A stretch of 6,600 bases of DNA from an uncultured Muribaculaceae bacterium. Lineage in GTDB: Bacteria; Bacillota_I; Bacilli_A; RF39; UBA660. Positions 1 to 6,600 of the stretch are shown in pieces. How positions within the stretch are numbered: position 1 is the stretch's first letter; each line of letters opens with the position of its first letter. The position numbers were made by a program, and so were the translations under genes. The stretch covers positions 1-6,600 of the forward strand of contig CAYXHQ010000057.1 of assembly GCA_964465245.1 (NCBI GenBank). The letters are read 5' to 3'. The notes below the pieces were generated by a model. It made no database searches. It saw only the letters and a program-made list of their open reading frames with translations, and had not been told where the DNA came from.

Positions 1-80
1 TAGTATGATAAAGAAAAAAATCCGTAAAAAACGGACTTTAGTCTAAAAATTTACGAATTACTTTGTCAACAGTCTGTAAA

Positions 81-107
81 GACTATAATAAATTATAGTC
101 TTTTTTT
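81..107 (+). terminator. Rho-independent terminator for an upstream, off-window + strand gene
   Basis: A perfect 8-bp stem gactataa (81-88) / ttatagtc (93-100) with a 4-nt loop taaa is followed immediately by T7 (101-107). Confidence 0.6.
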
Positions 108-108
108 G

Positions 109-167
109 TGACTAATTTAAAATACATTCTTTGACTAATTTAAAGTGATGCTATTGACTTATTTAAA
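109..167 (+). repeat. Three direct 13-nt repeats TGACTAATTTAAA with an exact 23-bp period
   Basis: tgactaatttaaa occurs at 109-121 and 132-144 (identical copies). tgacttatttaaa occurs at 155-167 (1 mismatch). The starts at 109, 132 and 155 are spaced exactly 23 bp apart. A fourth, interrupted copy, tgac-cggggggg-ttaaa, lies at 202-218 and overlaps the -35 box. Confidence 0.7.
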
Positions 168-200
168 TCAATCTTAAGAAATTATAATATTCGTTAAGTA

Positions 201-229
201 TTGACCGGGGGGGTTAAATAAGATATAAT
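201..229 (+). promoter_or_regulatory. Sigma70-type promoter of the DGR target gene/operon
   Basis: TTGACC (201-206), a 17-nt spacer (207-223) and TATAAT (224-229). This lies 21 nt upstream of the ATG at 251, with an aaggtaggaaag Shine-Dalgarno region at 236-247. Confidence 0.65.
207..213 (+). repeat. G7 homopolymer inside the promoter spacer (candidate slipped-strand phase-variation tract)
   Basis: ccgggggggtt: seven consecutive G at 207-213, the only long G/C run seen in an otherwise extremely AT-rich window. It lies exactly between the -35 and -10 hexamers. Confidence 0.6.
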
Positions 230-250
230 CTACTTAAGGTAGGAAAGTAT

Positions 251-1858
251 ATGAAGAATAAAAAATTAAACATATTGTTTATTGCTATAATTACATGTTC
301 TATATTTATTTCGAGTGTTTTACTTCAAGCGATAAGTTATAATACAGTAACATTCAATGAAAAAGACACCCTAATAGATAGATACTATAGCGACGTACTT
401 GAACCAAGAAAGAGCGTATTGGTAGAAAGTGCTCCTTTTACATGCACAGGTACTACTAAAATAAGTTGTACTGGCAGTGATAATATTTCTTCAATTTCAG
501 CATCAGAATATAATGCAATCGGAAGAAGGTCTTATCTAACAACGGATGACCCATATTGGGTAACTGGAGATGAAACTGGGACTACTGCAAATAGTGTTAC
601 TATTGATGGATTAAAAGAATTAGCAAAAGAAAATTTATCTGGTGCAAGAGCATCTGTTTATATAAAAGAAAGTACTAAACTTACTGGAAGTGGCACTAGA
701 AGAGACCCTTATAGAATAGAAGAATACATTCCTCCTGTTCCAGAACAAGATGTTAATATTTTAGCAATATATATTGATTGGAATAGTGATGGAGACTATG
801 AAGATAGAGTTGGAGCAGAAGACGAGTCAGTTGCCAGAACTTCTATTCCATCAGATAAAAGTTATGTATTAGATGAGTCTATGACAAATTGTACTAATGG
901 AGAAACTGTTAAATGGAATACGGTATCTAAGTCAATTACTATATCACCCTTAGAAGGACAAACAAGTTGTAGAGTATATCTAAAAAATGTTACAAATTAT
1001 CTAGTAAATGCAATCGCAGAACCTTATAAAACAAATACTGCACAAGGTTCACTGTATAATGAATTTGTAGGCAAATATGTAATAATGGATCCAAGCGTAT
1101 GTAATAGTGCAGGTGTATGTGGACTAATACCTGATCCATACAATAATTTAGCTGTTGCAAATCCACAGTCTGCTTGTAGCTTAAATACTACGGGAGGATT
1201 AACCGATGAATCCACTGGTAACTGTAATGTCAACATAACATATTGTAATTCCTATCCTTCATATCAATCATCCCTTAGAAATTGGAGAATAGTATATGTA
1301 GAAGATTTATACGAACCAACTGATATAACATACAGTAATAAAAATTTAGAAGCAAATATATATATAGTCTCATCTAGAAGTGTAGAATGTAACACTTACA
1401 AAACAAATCCTGCAAATACTATAAGTAATCTTAATAATGCAGCAAAAAAATACTGTAATAATGCAATAGTAGATGGAGGAACTTGCAATAGTACAAACGT
1501 ATATGCATTTAATGGAACAGATTTTGAAAGAATATCAAAGTATACAAGAGGAAGACTAAATTTAGCATCTAACACATTCATCACACTTACTAGTTGCCGG
1601 GATGCCTCAAGCGCTCAATGTTTTAATAGTTCAAAAGATGCAAATAATTTTAATTCGATAGTAAACAATGGCGAATATTATTGGTTTGCTAGTGCAATTG
1701 GCTCTTACGCTGTCTATACCTGGATTCCGGACGCCATGCGTGTGACCAGCAACAACACAAACCCGTTTGGTCTTCGCCCTGTCCTAAAGCTAAAATCTGG
1801 TATCAAATATACGGGTGGAACAGGTACTGCGGAAGATCCGTATAAAATAATACCTTAA
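251..1858 (+). CDS. DGR target (variable) protein; secreted or surface Cys-rich protein with a diversified C-terminal ligand-binding domain
   Basis: A 535-aa ORF with an RBS. The N-terminus MKNKKLNILFIAIITCSIFISSVLL looks like a signal peptide or membrane anchor (a possible non-canonical lipobox at IIT-C). There are many Cys residues. The C-terminal codons 480-505 form the VR matching the TR at 3058-3146. The ...NPFGLRPVLKLK ending resembles the last strand of C-type-lectin-fold DGR variable domains, but the family cannot be assigned by eye. Confidence 0.9.
   Translation: MKNKKLNILFIAIITCSIFISSVLLQAISYNTVTFNEKDTLIDRYYSDVLEPRKSVLVESAPFTCTGTTKISCTGSDNISSISASEYNAIGRRSYLTTDDPYWVTGDETGTTANSVTIDGLKELAKENLSGARASVYIKESTKLTGSGTRRDPYRIEEYIPPVPEQDVNILAIYIDWNSDGDYEDRVGAEDESVARTSIPSDKSYVLDESMTNCTNGETVKWNTVSKSITISPLEGQTSCRVYLKNVTNYLVNAIAEPYKTNTAQGSLYNEFVGKYVIMDPSVCNSAGVCGLIPDPYNNLAVANPQSACSLNTTGGLTDESTGNCNVNITYCNSYPSYQSSLRNWRIVYVEDLYEPTDITYSNKNLEANIYIVSSRSVECNTYKTNPANTISNLNNAAKKYCNNAIVDGGTCNSTNVYAFNGTDFERISKYTRGRLNLASNTFITLTSCRDASSAQCFNSSKDANNFNSIVNNGEYYWFASAIGSYAVYTWIPDAMRVTSNNTNPFGLRPVLKLKSGIKYTGGTGTAEDPYKIIP
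1686..1777 (+). other. DGR variable region (VR)
   Basis: Aligns with the TR at 3058-3146. Every substitution is at a TR adenine and non-A positions are 100% identical. It ends in a shared 14-nt A-free block, cgtttggtcttcgc (1764-1777). Confidence 0.92.
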
Positions 1859-1870
1859 TGGAAAAAAGGA

Positions 1871-1904
1871 ATTCACTAAGTGGGCTTTTAGTCCACTAGT
1901 GAAT
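1871..1904 (+). other. Inverted repeat/hairpin just after the target-gene stop codon (candidate DGR target-site cruciform or attenuator)
   Basis: attcactaagtgg (1871-1883) pairs with ccactagtgaat (1893-1904): a 12-bp stem with one bulged A and a 9-nt loop gcttttagt. No T-run follows on the + strand. An A6 run precedes it, which would be a T-run on the - strand. Confidence 0.5.
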
Positions 1905-1912
1905 GAGTAAAA

Positions 1913-2314
1913 ATGATTGATGATATAAAAAAAGTGGAAAATAATAGTTTGATAATTATACTAGATTTAGATAAATATATTGTTTATTATAATGATATAT
2001 ATATTCTATACTATTTCTTTAACTATAAATATTTTGTTAATAAAAAAGGCAAGTATTTAACAAATAGTTTAAAATACTTAAATAGAGTAATAAAAATATT
2101 AAATGAATATAAAATTAATTATTTAGTATTAGAAAAAAGAAATAATTATAACACTTTAATGAATAAAAAATTTGATGATAATTTTTATAAATATTATATA
2201 AAAAAAGGAAAGACAAAATATAAAAGAAAAAAAATAATTAATAATATGTATAAATCTCTTAAGAAAATTGATAATGTGAGAATACTAAAGATAATAGAGG
2301 AATGTAATTTATGA
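1913..2314 (+). CDS. Small MutS N-terminal-domain-like DGR accessory protein, divergent copy 1
   Basis: A 133-aa ORF paralogous to the next ORF. DKYIVYYN-DIYILYYFFNYK...TNSLKYLNRVIKILNEYKINYLV aligns with GKFYITFNKDAYIVGGIFNYK...INSLAKVINKLENMKINYIV. Its stop overlaps the next start (ATGA at 2311-2314). Confidence 0.6.
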   Translation: MIDDIKKVENNSLIIILDLDKYIVYYNDIYILYYFFNYKYFVNKKGKYLTNSLKYLNRVIKILNEYKINYLVLEKRNNYNTLMNKKFDDNFYKYYIKKGKTKYKRKKIINNMYKSLKKIDNVRILKIIEECNL

Positions 2315-2706
2315 AAGAAAAATATGAAAAAATTAAAAATGAGTATTTAGAATATGTTGTTTTTATTAAAAGCGGAAAATTTTATATAACTTTTAATAAA
2401 GATGCATATATTGTTGGTGGGATTTTTAATTATAAAATAATAAATTCTAAAGTTGGATTTCCTATTAATTCTTTAGCAAAGGTAATTAATAAATTGGAAA
2501 ATATGAAAATCAATTATATAGTTGATAATGATGAAAAGAAAAATTTTAAAAATTTAAATAATTATAATGATTGTTATAAAAGATGTTGTGAATTACAAGA
2601 GAAAAGAAAAAATATTGAAAATATAGTTAAGTGTTTAAATAAATCTATAAATAGTGATGAATTTAATATAATTATTAAAAAAATAAATGGTATTATTAAT
2701 GAATAA
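2311..2706 (+). CDS. Small MutS N-terminal (mismatch-binding domain I)-like DGR accessory protein, copy 2
   Basis: A 131-aa ORF with a gagga RBS about 11 nt upstream. KYEKIKNEYLEYVVFIKSGKFYITFNKDAYIVGGIFNYKII..KVGFPINSLAKVINKLENMKINYIV parallels E. coli MutS [68 protein letters not shown]. It has no ATPase or other MutS domains. Confidence 0.65.
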   Translation: MKEKYEKIKNEYLEYVVFIKSGKFYITFNKDAYIVGGIFNYKIINSKVGFPINSLAKVINKLENMKINYIVDNDEKKNFKNLNNYNDCYKRCCELQEKRKNIENIVKCLNKSINSDEFNIIIKKINGIINE

Positions 2707-3052
2707 TGAAGATAATTTTAAAATTTTTTATTATATCAAAAGATTAATTAAATATTATGATAAAATATTGATTAATTTTCCACATAAAGAATTAGAATTA
2801 AAAAAAATATTAGTTAATGAATTACATTTAATACTTAAATTAAGTTACTTGGCAAATGAATCTAAAAATGATATCAGATATAATTATCAATGTGAAATGG
2901 TTGCTTCTATTAAGTTTGTATGTTTTATAACAGATGAATGTGAAGAAAAGTGTATTATATCTAAAAAACAATATTTATTGATAGGAGAGAATCTCAACAA
3001 TATTTTGAAGTATTTAAAAGGATGGATGAAATCCTGTTTAAAGAAGGTGTAG
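2699..3052 (+). CDS. avd: Avd (accessory variability determinant), four-helix-bundle protein
   Basis: About 117-121 aa and predicted all-helical. LINFPHKELELKKILVNELHLILKLSYLANESKN and IGENLNNILKYLKGWMKS parallel Bordetella-phage bAvd IAQSIPRKHGVAREMFLKCLLGQVELFIVAGKSN and IAEVGRILGSWIAR. It sits immediately upstream of the TR, the canonical avd position. The start is either ATG 2699 (overlapping the upstream stop at 2704-2706) or ATG 2687. Confidence 0.8.
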   Translation: MNNEDNFKIFYYIKRLIKYYDKILINFPHKELELKKILVNELHLILKLSYLANESKNDIRYNYQCEMVASIKFVCFITDECEEKCIISKKQYLLIGENLNNILKYLKGWMKSCLKKV

Positions 3053-3057
3053 AATTG

Positions 3058-3146
3058 TAAATAGTGCAAATGACTCAAACAATGTCTATAACTGGAATCC
3101 GAACAACATGAATGTGAACAACAACACAAACACGTTTGGTCTTCGC
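3058..3146 (+). other. DGR template repeat (TR)
   Basis: Begins 6 nt after the avd stop. Read in the VR frame it is aat agt gca aat gac tca aac aat gtc tat aac tgg aat ccg aac aac atg aat gtg aac aac aac aca aac acg ttt ggt ctt cgc. That gives 13 AAY codons out of 29, and a TGA stop follows immediately. It is non-coding, and the - strand ORF 2887-3231 over it is spurious. Confidence 0.92.
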
Positions 3147-3294
3147 TGATTTCAAATATATGTTTGAATATAATAACTATGTGTTTTATATGAATACGTA
3201 TTTGAACAAATTTTATTCCTTGATTTATCAAAAATTAAAAAAGCAAATTATGGTGTTAGTAAATTAATTTGAAAAGGCTAATAATTTAAAAATC

Positions 3295-3333
3295 TTTTTT
3301 ATTAAAAAGTATTAGGTACTTTTTAATAAGGAA
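3295..3333 (+). promoter_or_regulatory. Long hairpin in the TR-RT spacer that overlaps the RT Shine-Dalgarno sequence
   Basis: The perfect 11-bp core attaaaaagta (3301-3311) / tactttttaat (3317-3327) has a loop ttagg. It can be extended by tttttt (3295-3300) pairing with aaggaa (3328-3333), including G-U pairs, which covers the aagga RBS 8 nt upstream of ATG 3341. Confidence 0.5.
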
Positions 3334-3340
3334 TATTTTT

Positions 3341-4276
3341 ATGAAAAGAATCAACAATATTTATGAAAATTGTTATAATATAAATAATATTTTATTATCT
3401 TTTGATGAAGTTATCTATAAAACTAAAAATAAAAAAGAAGTAAATAAAGCATTATCATTAAAACCAATATATATTTATAATGCATATAATGTTTTGAAAA
3501 ATAGAATATATGCTCCTGGAGATTATATCCATAAAATAATATATGAGCCTAAAAAAAGAGATATTTATTATCAAAATATATTTGATAAACTAATTAATAA
3601 TATAGTATGTAGGAATATACTTATACCTTGTTTAGAACCCTCTTTAATCAATACTTCTGTAGCAAGCAGAAAAAACATGGGTACTCATAAAGGATTAAAA
3701 TTATATTTTGAATATAGAAGGATAATGAATAAAAAATATAAAAAGTATTATATTTTAAAACTTGATATTAAAGGTTATTATAAACACATATCAAAAGAAG
3801 TATTATATAAAAAAGTGTGTAATAAAATTAAAGATAAAGAAGCATTAAAAATAATTTATAACATTATTTTTTCTTTTAAAGAAAGTGGGATTTCTATTGG
3901 AAATATGTCTAGTCAAATATTTGCGTTATATTATCTAAATGAAATTGATCATATGATAAAAGAGGAGTTTAAAATAAAGTATTATATAAGATATCAAGAT
4001 GATTTTATTTTAATGCATAATAATTTAGAAAATTTAAAAAAAGTATTAAATGTTTTAAAAAAAGAATTATTAAATATAAATTTAGAAATAAATAATAAAA
4101 CTAAAATATATTCAAACAAAGATAATATGATTTTTTTGGGTGTAAACAAGTTTGGAAAAAGAAAAATTAAATTTAACAAAATAAAGAATATTAAAAAATC
4201 TTATATGAATGAAAATCTAAATTTAAATCATTACATATTTTTAAAAAAATATTACAAAGAAAAATTGTTTTATTGA
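3341..4276 (+). CDS. DGR reverse transcriptase
   Basis: A 311-aa ORF. RT motifs present are IYEPKKRDIY (1), SVASRKNMGTHKGL (2a), YILKLDIKGYYKHIS (3), GISIGNMSSQIFALYYLNEIDH (4, with the DGR-diagnostic GxxxSQ at nt 3896-3916), YIRYQDDFIL (5, YQDD at 3992-4003) and MIFLG (7). It has no maturase/X, endonuclease or retron-type features. Confidence 0.93.
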   Translation: MKRINNIYENCYNINNILLSFDEVIYKTKNKKEVNKALSLKPIYIYNAYNVLKNRIYAPGDYIHKIIYEPKKRDIYYQNIFDKLINNIVCRNILIPCLEPSLINTSVASRKNMGTHKGLKLYFEYRRIMNKKYKKYYILKLDIKGYYKHISKEVLYKKVCNKIKDKEALKIIYNIIFSFKESGISIGNMSSQIFALYYLNEIDHMIKEEFKIKYYIRYQDDFILMHNNLENLKKVLNVLKKELLNINLEINNKTKIYSNKDNMIFLGVNKFGKRKIKFNKIKNIKKSYMNENLNLNHYIFLKKYYKEKLFY

Positions 4277-4301
4277 TAGAATAATATTTAAATGTTAAAA
4301 T
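4273..4301 (+). promoter_or_regulatory. Possible ffh promoter (extended -10)
   Basis: TTGATA (4273-4278), a 17-nt spacer and TAAAAT (4296-4301) preceded by TGT (4293-4295). Such matches are easy to get by chance in AT-rich DNA. Confidence 0.3.
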
Positions 4302-4325
4302 AAGATATAGAAAAAAGGTGAATAT

Positions 4326-5633
4326 ATGTTTGAGAATTTAAGTGATAAGTTAAGTGGAATACTTAGTAAAGTTAAAGGGTATGGTGTAATTACTGAGGAA
4401 AATATTAGTGAAAGTTTAAGAGAGATTAGACTTTGTTTATTAGGCGCGGACGTTAACTATACTATTGTTAAAGAGTTTGTTGAGAATATTAAAAATAAAG
4501 CTTTGGGAGAAGAAGTTAAAAAAAGTTTAAGACCTGGAGACTTATTTGTTAAAATTGTTAAAGATGAACTTGTTAGTTTGCTTGGAGGTGACTCTAGTCC
4601 TTTAGAAGTAACTAAGAAACCCACCATTGTTATGCTTGCTGGTCTTCAAGGAAGTGGCAAAACTACTACTATTGGTAAACTTGGTGCGATGGTTCGCAAG
4701 AAACATTATAAGAAACCAATCTTTATTGCATGTGATATTTATAGACCAGCTGCGGTGAACCAACTTAAAGATATTGGTAGAAGTCTAGATATTGAAGTAT
4801 ACTCAGAAGACTCTAAAGACGCAGTGCAAATTGCTAAGAATGGAGTGGAGTACGCTAAAAACAATGGATTTGATTATATACTAATAGATACTGCTGGTAG
4901 ACTTCAAATAGATGATACTCTTATGCGAGAGTTAGTAGATATAGAAAGTAGTGTAAGTATAAATGAAACATTACTTGTAATAGATGCAACTATGGGACAA
5001 GATGCAATTAATGTTATAAATGGATTTAATGATAAAATTAAACTTACTGGGTGTATTTTAACAAAGATGGACGGGGACACTAAAGGTGGAGTTGCTTTGT
5101 CTCTACGCTATTTAACACATGTTCCAATTAAGTTTATAGGTGACTCTGAAAAATTAGATGGATTAAGTGAATTTGATCCTACTAGAATGGCATCAAGAAT
5201 AATAGGAGAGGGTGACTTAATGTCTATTATAGAAAAAACTGAATCTGTAATAGATATGGATGAAGCAGCAAAAACAGCTAAAAACTTTGAAAAAGGAAAA
5301 TTTGATTTAGAAGACTTTTTAATTACTATGAAGCAAATAAAGAAAATGGGACCACTTGAGAATTTGTTAAAAATGGTTCCTGGTGCTTCTAAGATGGGTT
5401 TAAACAATGTAAACATAGACCCAAAAATGATGGCGAGAACTGAAGCAATAGTTTTATCAATGACACCATATGAAAGAAGAAACCCTAATGTTTTAAAAGC
5501 TACTAGAAAGATAAGAATATCTGCGGGTTCTGGTGCCTCTGTTGAAGAAGTTAATAGATTACTTAAGCAATTTGAAATGATGCAAGGTATGATGAAAAAA
5601 GTTAAATCTGGTAATTTTAAGATGCCTTTTTAA
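4326..5633 (+). CDS. ffh: Signal recognition particle protein Ffh (SRP54)
   Basis: A 435-aa ORF with an aaggtga RBS. It has an N domain, GTPase motifs GLQGSGKTTT, DTAGR and TKMDGD, and a Met-rich M domain (LENLLKMVPG..., FEMMQGMMKK). Confidence 0.97.
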   Translation: MFENLSDKLSGILSKVKGYGVITEENISESLREIRLCLLGADVNYTIVKEFVENIKNKALGEEVKKSLRPGDLFVKIVKDELVSLLGGDSSPLEVTKKPTIVMLAGLQGSGKTTTIGKLGAMVRKKHYKKPIFIACDIYRPAAVNQLKDIGRSLDIEVYSEDSKDAVQIAKNGVEYAKNNGFDYILIDTAGRLQIDDTLMRELVDIESSVSINETLLVIDATMGQDAINVINGFNDKIKLTGCILTKMDGDTKGGVALSLRYLTHVPIKFIGDSEKLDGLSEFDPTRMASRIIGEGDLMSIIEKTESVIDMDEAAKTAKNFEKGKFDLEDFLITMKQIKKMGPLENLLKMVPGASKMGLNNVNIDPKMMARTEAIVLSMTPYERRNPNVLKATRKIRISAGSGASVEEVNRLLKQFEMMQGMMKKVKSGNFKMPF

Positions 5634-5760: not shown

Positions 5761-6600
5761 ATGGAAAATTTAAAATCAAAAAATTTTAGTGAAAGCATAT
5801 TTGATAATATTAAGCATATCGATGAGTATGGAAATGAGTATTGGTCTGCAAGAGAATTGCAAAAAGTGTTGGAGTATGCTCAATGGAGAAGGTTTGAGAG
5901 TGTTATCAATCGAGCAAAAGAAGCGTGTACGAATAGTAAAAATACTAAAATTGACCATTTTGCCAAGGTTGGCAAAATGGTTCAAATAGGTTCAAATGCT
6001 AAAAAGGAAATTATAGACTATAATTTGTCAAGATATGCATGCTATCTTATTGTGCAAAATGGAGACCCAAAAAAAGATGTAATAGCTTTAGGACAAACTT
6101 ACTTTGCTATTCAAACAAGACGTCAAGAATTGAATGAAATGGAATATAAGAGTTTATCAGAAGATGAAAAAAGATTATATAGAAGAAAGCAAACAAAAGA
6201 CGGAAATAAAATATTATACTCTACTGCTTTAAAAAAAGGGGTAAAAAACTTTGATAAGTTTACTAATTATGGATATAAGGGACTGTATGGTGGTGAGACT
6301 GCTGCAGATATAGCGAAAAGAAAAAAACTTAGATATAGAGAAGACATTCTTGATAATATGGGAAGTACAGAATTAGGTGCTAATATATTTAGAATTACGC
6401 AAACTGAAGAACTATTAAAAACACAAAAAGAAATAAGTGAGAAGATTTCAAATGATACACATTATAAAGTTGGAACTGCTATAAGAAATACAATAAAAAA
6501 GTTAGGCGGTACTATGCCAGAAAAGTTACCTACGCCAAATAAAAGTATAAAAGAATTAGAAAAAGTAAGAACTAACAATAAAATTATAAAAAATAAATAA
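5761..6600 (+). CDS. dinD: DNA-damage-inducible protein D (DinD) family protein
   Basis: A 279-aa ORF with an aaagga RBS. EYWSARELQKVLEYAQWRRFESVINRAKEAC...DHF...IGSNAKKEIIDYNLSRYACYLIVQNGDPKKDVIALGQTYFAIQTRRQE matches the conserved DinD N-terminal pattern. The stop TAA falls at 6598-6600. Confidence 0.8.
   Translation: MENLKSKNFSESIFDNIKHIDEYGNEYWSARELQKVLEYAQWRRFESVINRAKEACTNSKNTKIDHFAKVGKMVQIGSNAKKEIIDYNLSRYACYLIVQNGDPKKDVIALGQTYFAIQTRRQELNEMEYKSLSEDEKRLYRRKQTKDGNKILYSTALKKGVKNFDKFTNYGYKGLYGGETAADIAKRKKLRYREDILDNMGSTELGANIFRITQTEELLKTQKEISEKISNDTHYKVGTAIRNTIKKLGGTMPEKLPTPNKSIKELEKVRTNNKIIKNK

Follow-up and report, generated by a model that had tools for sequence, protein, structure and literature searches.

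Introduction

Homopolymers lying in promoter spacers are an established means of controlling two Neisseria meningitidis surface-protein genes, porA through a poly-G tract and opc through a poly-C tract, in the references cited in PMC5084427, where the effect of spacing at porA is credited to van der Ende 1995; both genes were invoked as precedents by an earlier, sequence-only reading of the DNA studied here. The window, by which is meant the whole 6600-base stretch of DNA that was analysed, resembles porA and opc in having a G/C homopolymer between the hexamers of a surface-protein gene, since a run of seven G (G7, positions 207-213) separates the -35 and -10 elements, and in that a change of one repeat would shift the spacing around the 17-nt optimum, with graded expression expected. 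The porA and opc tracts are ~9-15 nt long and of proven variability, whereas the tract in the window is G7 and was invariant in the two known copies. The hosts also differ, being Neisseria in one case and Gram-positive-derived, RF39-like Bacilli in the other, and the window is known from its sequence alone.

The poly-G/C loci of Campylobacter and Helicobacter are like the window in that an isolated G run, in an AT-rich genome, stands upstream of a gene for a surface-exposed protein. G/C runs of at least 7 are the cut-off applied by PhasomeIt in predicting phase-variable tracts, which the G7 of the window reaches as the Campylobacter and Helicobacter tracts do, while direct evidence of variability in C. 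jejuni NCTC 11168 covers all tracts of at least 8, and the authors of that work caution that mutation rates of <1e-5 are possible for tracts no longer than the cut-off (PMC6321876). Unlike the lineage studied here, for which two such tracts were found in ~1 Mb of related DNA, these organisms carry dozens of tracts per genome, most of them intragenic, and Campylobacter is without mismatch repair.

A further parallel is Mycoplasma hyorhinis, of a wall-less or low-GC lineage, in which a homopolymer in the promoter spacer of the vlp genes switches variable surface proteins that are subject to a second layer of protein variation. The vlp tract is poly-A and that of the window is poly-G, and the second layer is repeat-number size variation in vlp as against DGR mutagenesis in the window.

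DGRs with MSL accessory genes form a known class, architecture D (Wu et al. 2018, PMC5758913), and Msl DGRs have been described from Bacteroides (bioRxiv 10.1101/2024.11.15.621889). The window shares with the MSL DGRs its components (target, MSL, avd, TR and RT), adenine-specific differences between TR and VR, and the C-terminal location of the VR; it is unlike the published examples in having two tandem MSL-like genes and an RF39-like Bacilli host. In culture, most of the DGRs studied so far show weak activity or none and, to our knowledge, the regulation of DGR activity and of target expression is largely unknown. A published DGR with an SSR in its target promoter was not found, and a literature search on DGRs together with SSR phase variation returned no report. 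Homopolymer promoter spacers and MSL-type DGRs are each known, and their combination was not found described.

The DGR locus

The DGR of the window is encoded on the + strand. It begins with a target gene (251-1858) whose product of 535 aa has a hydrophobic signal or anchor at its N terminus and the C-terminal part of which contains the variable region (VR, 1690-1777). This is followed by a 133-aa ORF identified as an MSL paralogue (1913-2314), which is 34% identical to the MSL of locus L029 and is conserved in homologous cassettes; by an MSL (MutS-like, MutS_I domain) accessory gene (2311-2706; PF01624, E = 2.8e-8); by an Avd-like accessory gene (2699-3052), for which the bAvd match (E = 2.8e-4) is below the Pfam cut-off and the position and homologues fit; by the template repeat (TR, 3062-3146); and by the gene for a DGR reverse transcriptase (RT) of 311 aa (3341-4276; RVT_1, E = 5e-17). 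Alignment of the TR with the VR showed substitutions at TR adenines exclusively, plus a 3-nt insertion. A search with the RT gave 727 homologues at E <= 1e-20, and Avd and MSL genes were present beside the RT in every locus examined.

A second copy of the locus was recovered on a Logan contig from sample SRR8925823 (L001), which spans positions 80-4911 of the window; no mention of SRR8925823 or SRP192927 was found in the papers searched. Over ~4.8 kb there were 36 aligned differences between the two, of which 32 were in the VR (1696-1764), including a 9-nt length difference, and this concentration of differences in the VR is indicative of a DGR that is active in nature. The locus is an active MSL-type DGR, belonging to the MSL-containing class (architecture D), and the DGR setting that had been claimed for the promoter is borne out by the RT, the adenine pattern of TR and VR, the MSL and Avd genes, and the divergence of the VR from that of L001.

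The window makes up nearly all of a 6605-nt NCBI metagenome contig. Its Ffh protein was found to be 75% identical to that of MAGs carrying the labels uncultured Bacilli or Tenericutes, CAG:302 and CAG:321, and the host is accordingly assigned to an RF39-like gut lineage. No DGR was found beside ffh in at least 20 related MAGs. The cassette would therefore be a lineage-specific insertion, and for the same reason these relatives offer no orthologous promoter for comparison.

Other features of the cassette were observed. The two MSL genes stand in tandem (1913-2314 and 2311-2706) and Pfam fails to recognise the first, while in relatives the MutS_I domain is fused to the C terminus of the RT (P0029 and L124:4665-6137). 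The DGR clade of gut Bacilli is large, with hundreds of clusters, and MSL is universal in it. The VR is longer than the TR, by 3 nt in the window and by 12 nt in L001, with the extra VR codons all located where the TR has its (AAC)n stretch (window 1739-1757 vs TR 3116-3124; L001:1660-1690), and the TR is identical in the window and L001 although the VR lengths differ. This suggests slippage of the RT or the template on the AAC repeat during mutagenic retrohoming and, if so, the DGR would generate length variation too. Four differences between the window and L001 lie outside the VR, three of them within 25 nt of ffh (4697-4721), a cluster that recombination over a short patch, or a mistake in the assembly, could explain.

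The target-gene promoter

Upstream of the target gene, on the + strand, the hexamer TTGACC (201-206), matching the -35 consensus TTGACA at 5/6 positions, and the hexamer TATAAT (224-229), a 6/6 match to the -10 consensus without a TG extension, were found to be separated by the 17-nt spacer GGGGGGGTTAAATAAGA (207-223). The spacer opens with the homopolymer GGGGGGG (207-213), which takes up 7 of its 17 nucleotides and is a candidate slipped-strand site; the sequences flanking the tract are AAGTATTGACC ... TTAAATAAGATATAAT. Of the 53 promoter-like sites given by a consensus scan of the window, this one ranked first, agreeing with the consensus at 11 of 12 positions, and the near-ideal promoter sequence with a 17-nt spacer that had been described at these exact coordinates is thereby confirmed. 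Shuffled sequences gave 50.2 +/- 7.5 promoter-like sites and, because the observed number is no higher than this, the argument is one of the quality and position of the site at 201-229 and not of the count. A stricter pattern, TTGAC-N18-TATAAT, was present in only 7 of the 61 loci scanned.

The hexamers are near-consensus, their spacing lies within 16-18 nt and they stand upstream of a gene start, as in sigma-70/sigma-A promoters, and the placing of this predicted promoter in the sigma-A/sigma-70-type class is well supported. The ATG of the target starts 21 nt past the end of the -10 element and an SD-like sequence, AAGGTAGGAAAG, is present at 236-247 (+), so that the predicted leader would be very short, ~15 nt. 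On the upstream side, a terminator-like hairpin at 17-39, readable on both strands with a stem of 9 pairs on the - strand and 5 pairs on the + strand, closes the gene that lies upstream of the window. It is followed on the + strand by an AT-rich 11-bp hairpin (78-103) that runs into a T run ending at 107 and resembles an intrinsic terminator. This second hairpin was missed by a first terminator scan because its stem has few G-C pairs, and the fold of positions 1-130, which covers it, scored z = -3.99; it looks as though it insulates the target promoter from upstream transcription. Taken with the equivalents found in homologous cassettes, the 21-nt distance from the -10 element to the ATG, the SD-like sequence and the upstream hairpins uphold the earlier assignment, and the element at 201-229 very probably serves the DGR target gene as its promoter, with the TSS predicted. 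A riboswitch or structured leader was also considered and was ruled out, since no Rfam family was matched in the window and the fold of positions 100-270 was no better than that of shuffles (z = -0.64).

Rarity of the G7 tract

The G7 tract was the only G/C run of at least 5 in the 6600-base window, in agreement with the claim that it is the sole run of its kind there. The remaining G runs comprised two G4 (5073 and 6238), no C run of at least 4 was seen, and the number of G7 runs expected per window was 0.017 with independent bases and 0.034 under a first-order Markov model. Related RF39-like genome DNA, 350 kb in all, held 303, 66 and 7 G/C runs of length 4, 5 and 6, respectively, and none of at least 7, while 557 kb around 80 further related DGR loci contained one such run. 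These run statistics, in the window and in related DNA, indicate that the tract exceeds chance; the portion of the rarity argument that concerns its location in the spacer is post hoc. The same G7 is present in the independent Logan assembly, L001, and the tract is thus no artefact of assembly. Where the genome has 24% GC, an uninterrupted G7 outside coding sequence should tend to decay, unless it arose recently or selection maintains it.

The related genomes showed no general use of poly-G contingency loci across the 350 kb. Several of the G6 runs in relatives lie 5-8 nt before an ATG (L003:2681, L015:10460, L027:8973), and the G6 runs of these genomes would thus serve mostly as Shine-Dalgarno sequences, a role that accounts for most of the longer G runs in the lineage. 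The same role was ruled out for the G7 of the window, which has no start codon at a suitable distance downstream.

Tract length and the promoters of homologous cassettes

The tract is G7 in both known copies, the window and L001 (n=2), and both therefore have the 17-nt optimum; this identity holds despite 32 differing positions in the VR of the same two copies. For all six proteins of the window, the clusters to which they belong, drawn from ~15 billion proteins, hold only the NCBI contig and one Logan contig. Exact-protein look-ups with Ffh, RT and target, together with the cluster look-ups, gave no copy beyond L001. A DNA pattern allowing 3-13 nt at the position of the tract had no match in JGI metagenomes or IMG/VR, and megablast against phage records gave no match to the locus. 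Note that assemblies are consensus sequences, so that two G7 copies neither show nor exclude minority variants. The length of the tract equals the prediction cut-off of 7 and is below the documented range of at least 8.

Cassettes homologous to that of the window, with the order target, MSL-like, MSL, Avd, TR, RT and with RTs ~50% identical, were found as families P0027, P0009 and P0080. In these families, sigma-70-type promoters occur directly upstream of the targets, in a relative position matching that in the window, some with short leaders. The promoters compared were those of P0027 (8 samples), P0009 and P0080 (4 of 10 loci read), together with the stretch upstream of the P0056 target. 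Across these four homologous cassette families and ~30 samples, neither a G/C tract nor a length polymorphism was found upstream of the targets, and no run of at least 6 was present near the P0027, P0009, P0080 or P0056 targets. Judged from these predicted promoters, the G tract is not conserved among the targets of homologous cassettes.

One homologue of the target itself was found in 5.8 billion clusters (P0002), and no poly-G was present upstream of it. It comes from the same sample as the Logan copy, SRR8925823 (L002:945-2324), and is a paralogue of the C-terminal variable domain of the target, with 51% identity. Its N terminus is type IV pilin-like (KKGFTLMELLAVIGI...), and its VR-like end retains GGTCTTCGCCC, with no A-only match to the TR of the window. 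It could be a pilin-displayed target of the DGR mechanism, either a remote one or one from the past.

A G tract upstream of another DGR target

The sole other G/C run of at least 7 in ~1 Mb of related DNA was a G10 tract at L124:1692-1701 (OIYS01001118.1), located in a small leader ORF, 108 nt upstream of the DGR target gene of that locus. Two further loci, L143 and L144, encode RTs that are 88% identical to the L124 RT. The three sequences have a common leader layout, in which a promoter is followed by an SD and small ORF, then by a conserved hairpin with a T run, and then by an SD and the target ATG (L124:1650-1810, L143:3040-3222, L144:195-371; n=3). The leader hairpin has two compensatory pair changes (ACTATGAC/GTCATAGT vs ACTACGAT/ATCGTAGT). 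The tract in the small leader ORF reads G10 in L124, G5TG5 in L143 and G6 in L144. The leader ORFs of L143 (40 aa) and L144 (38 aa) are in frame and run into the hairpin. In L124, the G10 tract cuts the ORF short, and its full length would return with G9 or G12. One interpretation of these three sequences is that the L124-type leader looks like a phase-variable, translation-coupled attenuator of the DGR target. The RTs of this lineage were also seen to be RT-MutS_I fusions.

The L124 leader tract is not homologous to the promoter of the window. Both G/C runs of at least 7 in the ~1 Mb of related DNA nevertheless lie a short way upstream of DGR target genes. Positions of this kind account for ~1% of the related DNA, from which the probability of a second case by chance was estimated at ~0.01-0.02. 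That a G tract precedes a DGR target in a second lineage counts in favour of the slippage idea.

Discussion

The mechanism proposed for the window begins with the promoter. Without a TG extension, it is expected to rely on its -35 box and would need an exact spacing between the -35 and -10 elements, and both known copies, at the optimal 17 nt, would be at full strength. The G7 tract would by its nature tend to gain or lose one G through strand slippage, and rare G6 or G8 variants, with spacers of 16 or 18 nt, would transcribe the gene for the variable surface protein more weakly. On this mechanism the tract would behave as a low-frequency dimmer and not as a high-frequency on/off switch. We infer that slippage occurs at a useful rate and with an effect on expression, and the reading of the element as a real promoter whose G7 acts as such a dimmer is tentatively preferred, at a probability not far short of even.

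The sequence-only reading had gone further. It had taken the gain or loss of one G to switch the promoter on and off or between strengths; the change of spacing to 16 or 18 nt stands, whereas by analogy with porA a dimming is expected, in which a one-G change would reduce and not abolish expression. It had also suggested phase variation of the target, against which stand the unchanged length in the two copies and a tract no longer than the cut-off. Phase variation at G7 is a plausible hypothesis, cheaply testable, and not a finding.

A rival reading is that this is an ordinary fixed promoter, with G7 as incidental, stable filler of no regulatory role, arising for example by a one-off slippage or insertion that gave the 17-nt spacing, and with the target expressed constitutively or controlled in some other way. 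This is a serious contender, although it too is given somewhat less than an even chance. It fits the identical G7 in both known copies, a tract of the minimum length for predicted variability (PMC6321876), the absence of the tract from all homologous target promoters examined, a lineage otherwise without poly-G tracts, and the general freedom of spacer sequence to vary. It has to accommodate a run expected by chance only ~0.02-0.03 times per window, and more rarely still within a 17-nt spacer, as well as an AT-biased mutation that should erode G7, and the sole other long G run in ~1 Mb, which also precedes a DGR target and varies among homologues. If the tract is static, the locus has an ordinary strong promoter and little is added.

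A different role for the G block is raised by three near-perfect copies of TTGACTWATTTAAA, repeated directly every 23 nt (108-121, 131-144 and 154-167, +), which lie between the terminator and the promoter and which may be sites for a regulator or duplications of a -35-like box. It could be that the G block is a protein-binding or structural element that forms an operator array with these repeats and the -35 region, the G:C block then tuning the binding of a regulator or RNA polymerase by its sequence and rigidity and not by its length. The repeats are clustered just upstream, the -35 element (201) is 47 nt from the third repeat and roughly in phase, the -35 region of the promoter resembles a fourth repeat copy in which TAAT is replaced by CGGGGGGG, and a similar box, AAGTATTGACAATTTAAA, occurs at a P0080-family target promoter. 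However, the window contains no regulator gene, the TTGACTWATTTAAA motif is short and AT-rich, a G block in such a motif is absent from related loci, and the fold (z = -0.64) and Rfam searches gave no structural signal, and we regard the operator array as improbable. The likeness to a fourth copy may mean that insertion of the G residues created the 17-nt spacing, or that the repeats are operators. Finally, poly-G artefacts of two-colour Illumina chemistry exist in metagenome data, and the run could in principle be such an artefact or a homopolymer length error of sequencing or assembly. Yet it is short and internal to the contig, coherent promoter elements flank it, and exactly G7 is found in a second assembly, distinct from the first in its VR and at 4 sites elsewhere, which leaves an artefact with only a very slight probability.

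Returning to the slippage dimmer, a broader version of it would have RF39-like gut Bacilli repeatedly placing slippage-prone poly-G upstream of DGR targets, as a switch on top of hypermutation, with the tract of the window in a promoter spacer and that of the L124 lineage in a terminator-coupled leader ORF. This broader version is considered doubtful, rather less likely than the dimmer in the window. A stochastic switch of this kind would gate display of the variable protein and perhaps the making of the DGR machinery. If true, it would provide a simple, heritable and reversible form of bet-hedging, in which a hypervariable ligand-binding protein is either displayed or hidden, and two classic strategies of localized hypermutation would be joined in one locus.

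Whether the machinery would be included turns on the reach of the promoter. There is no T-run terminator between the DGR genes and several of the ORFs overlap, which permits co-transcription from 201-229, and transcription from this promoter may extend to the accessory genes that follow the target; dependence of the RT and TR on it is something we infer from this arrangement. A stable hairpin of -18.8 kcal/mol, without a T run, follows the stop codon of the target and precedes the next ORF (1871-1904, +) and could be an attenuator, a partial terminator or a DGR target-recognition hairpin. Internal promoters are possible in DNA of 16-25% GC, and together with this hairpin they call for caution on transcription of the whole DGR from one promoter. 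On the 3' side of the RT lie ffh and then a Bro-N gene (5761-6600), directly 3' of ffh. Another Bro-N gene adjoins a P0080-family DGR in one sample (L048:10176-10958), and these neighbours hint at mobile or phage-derived DNA near the cassettes.
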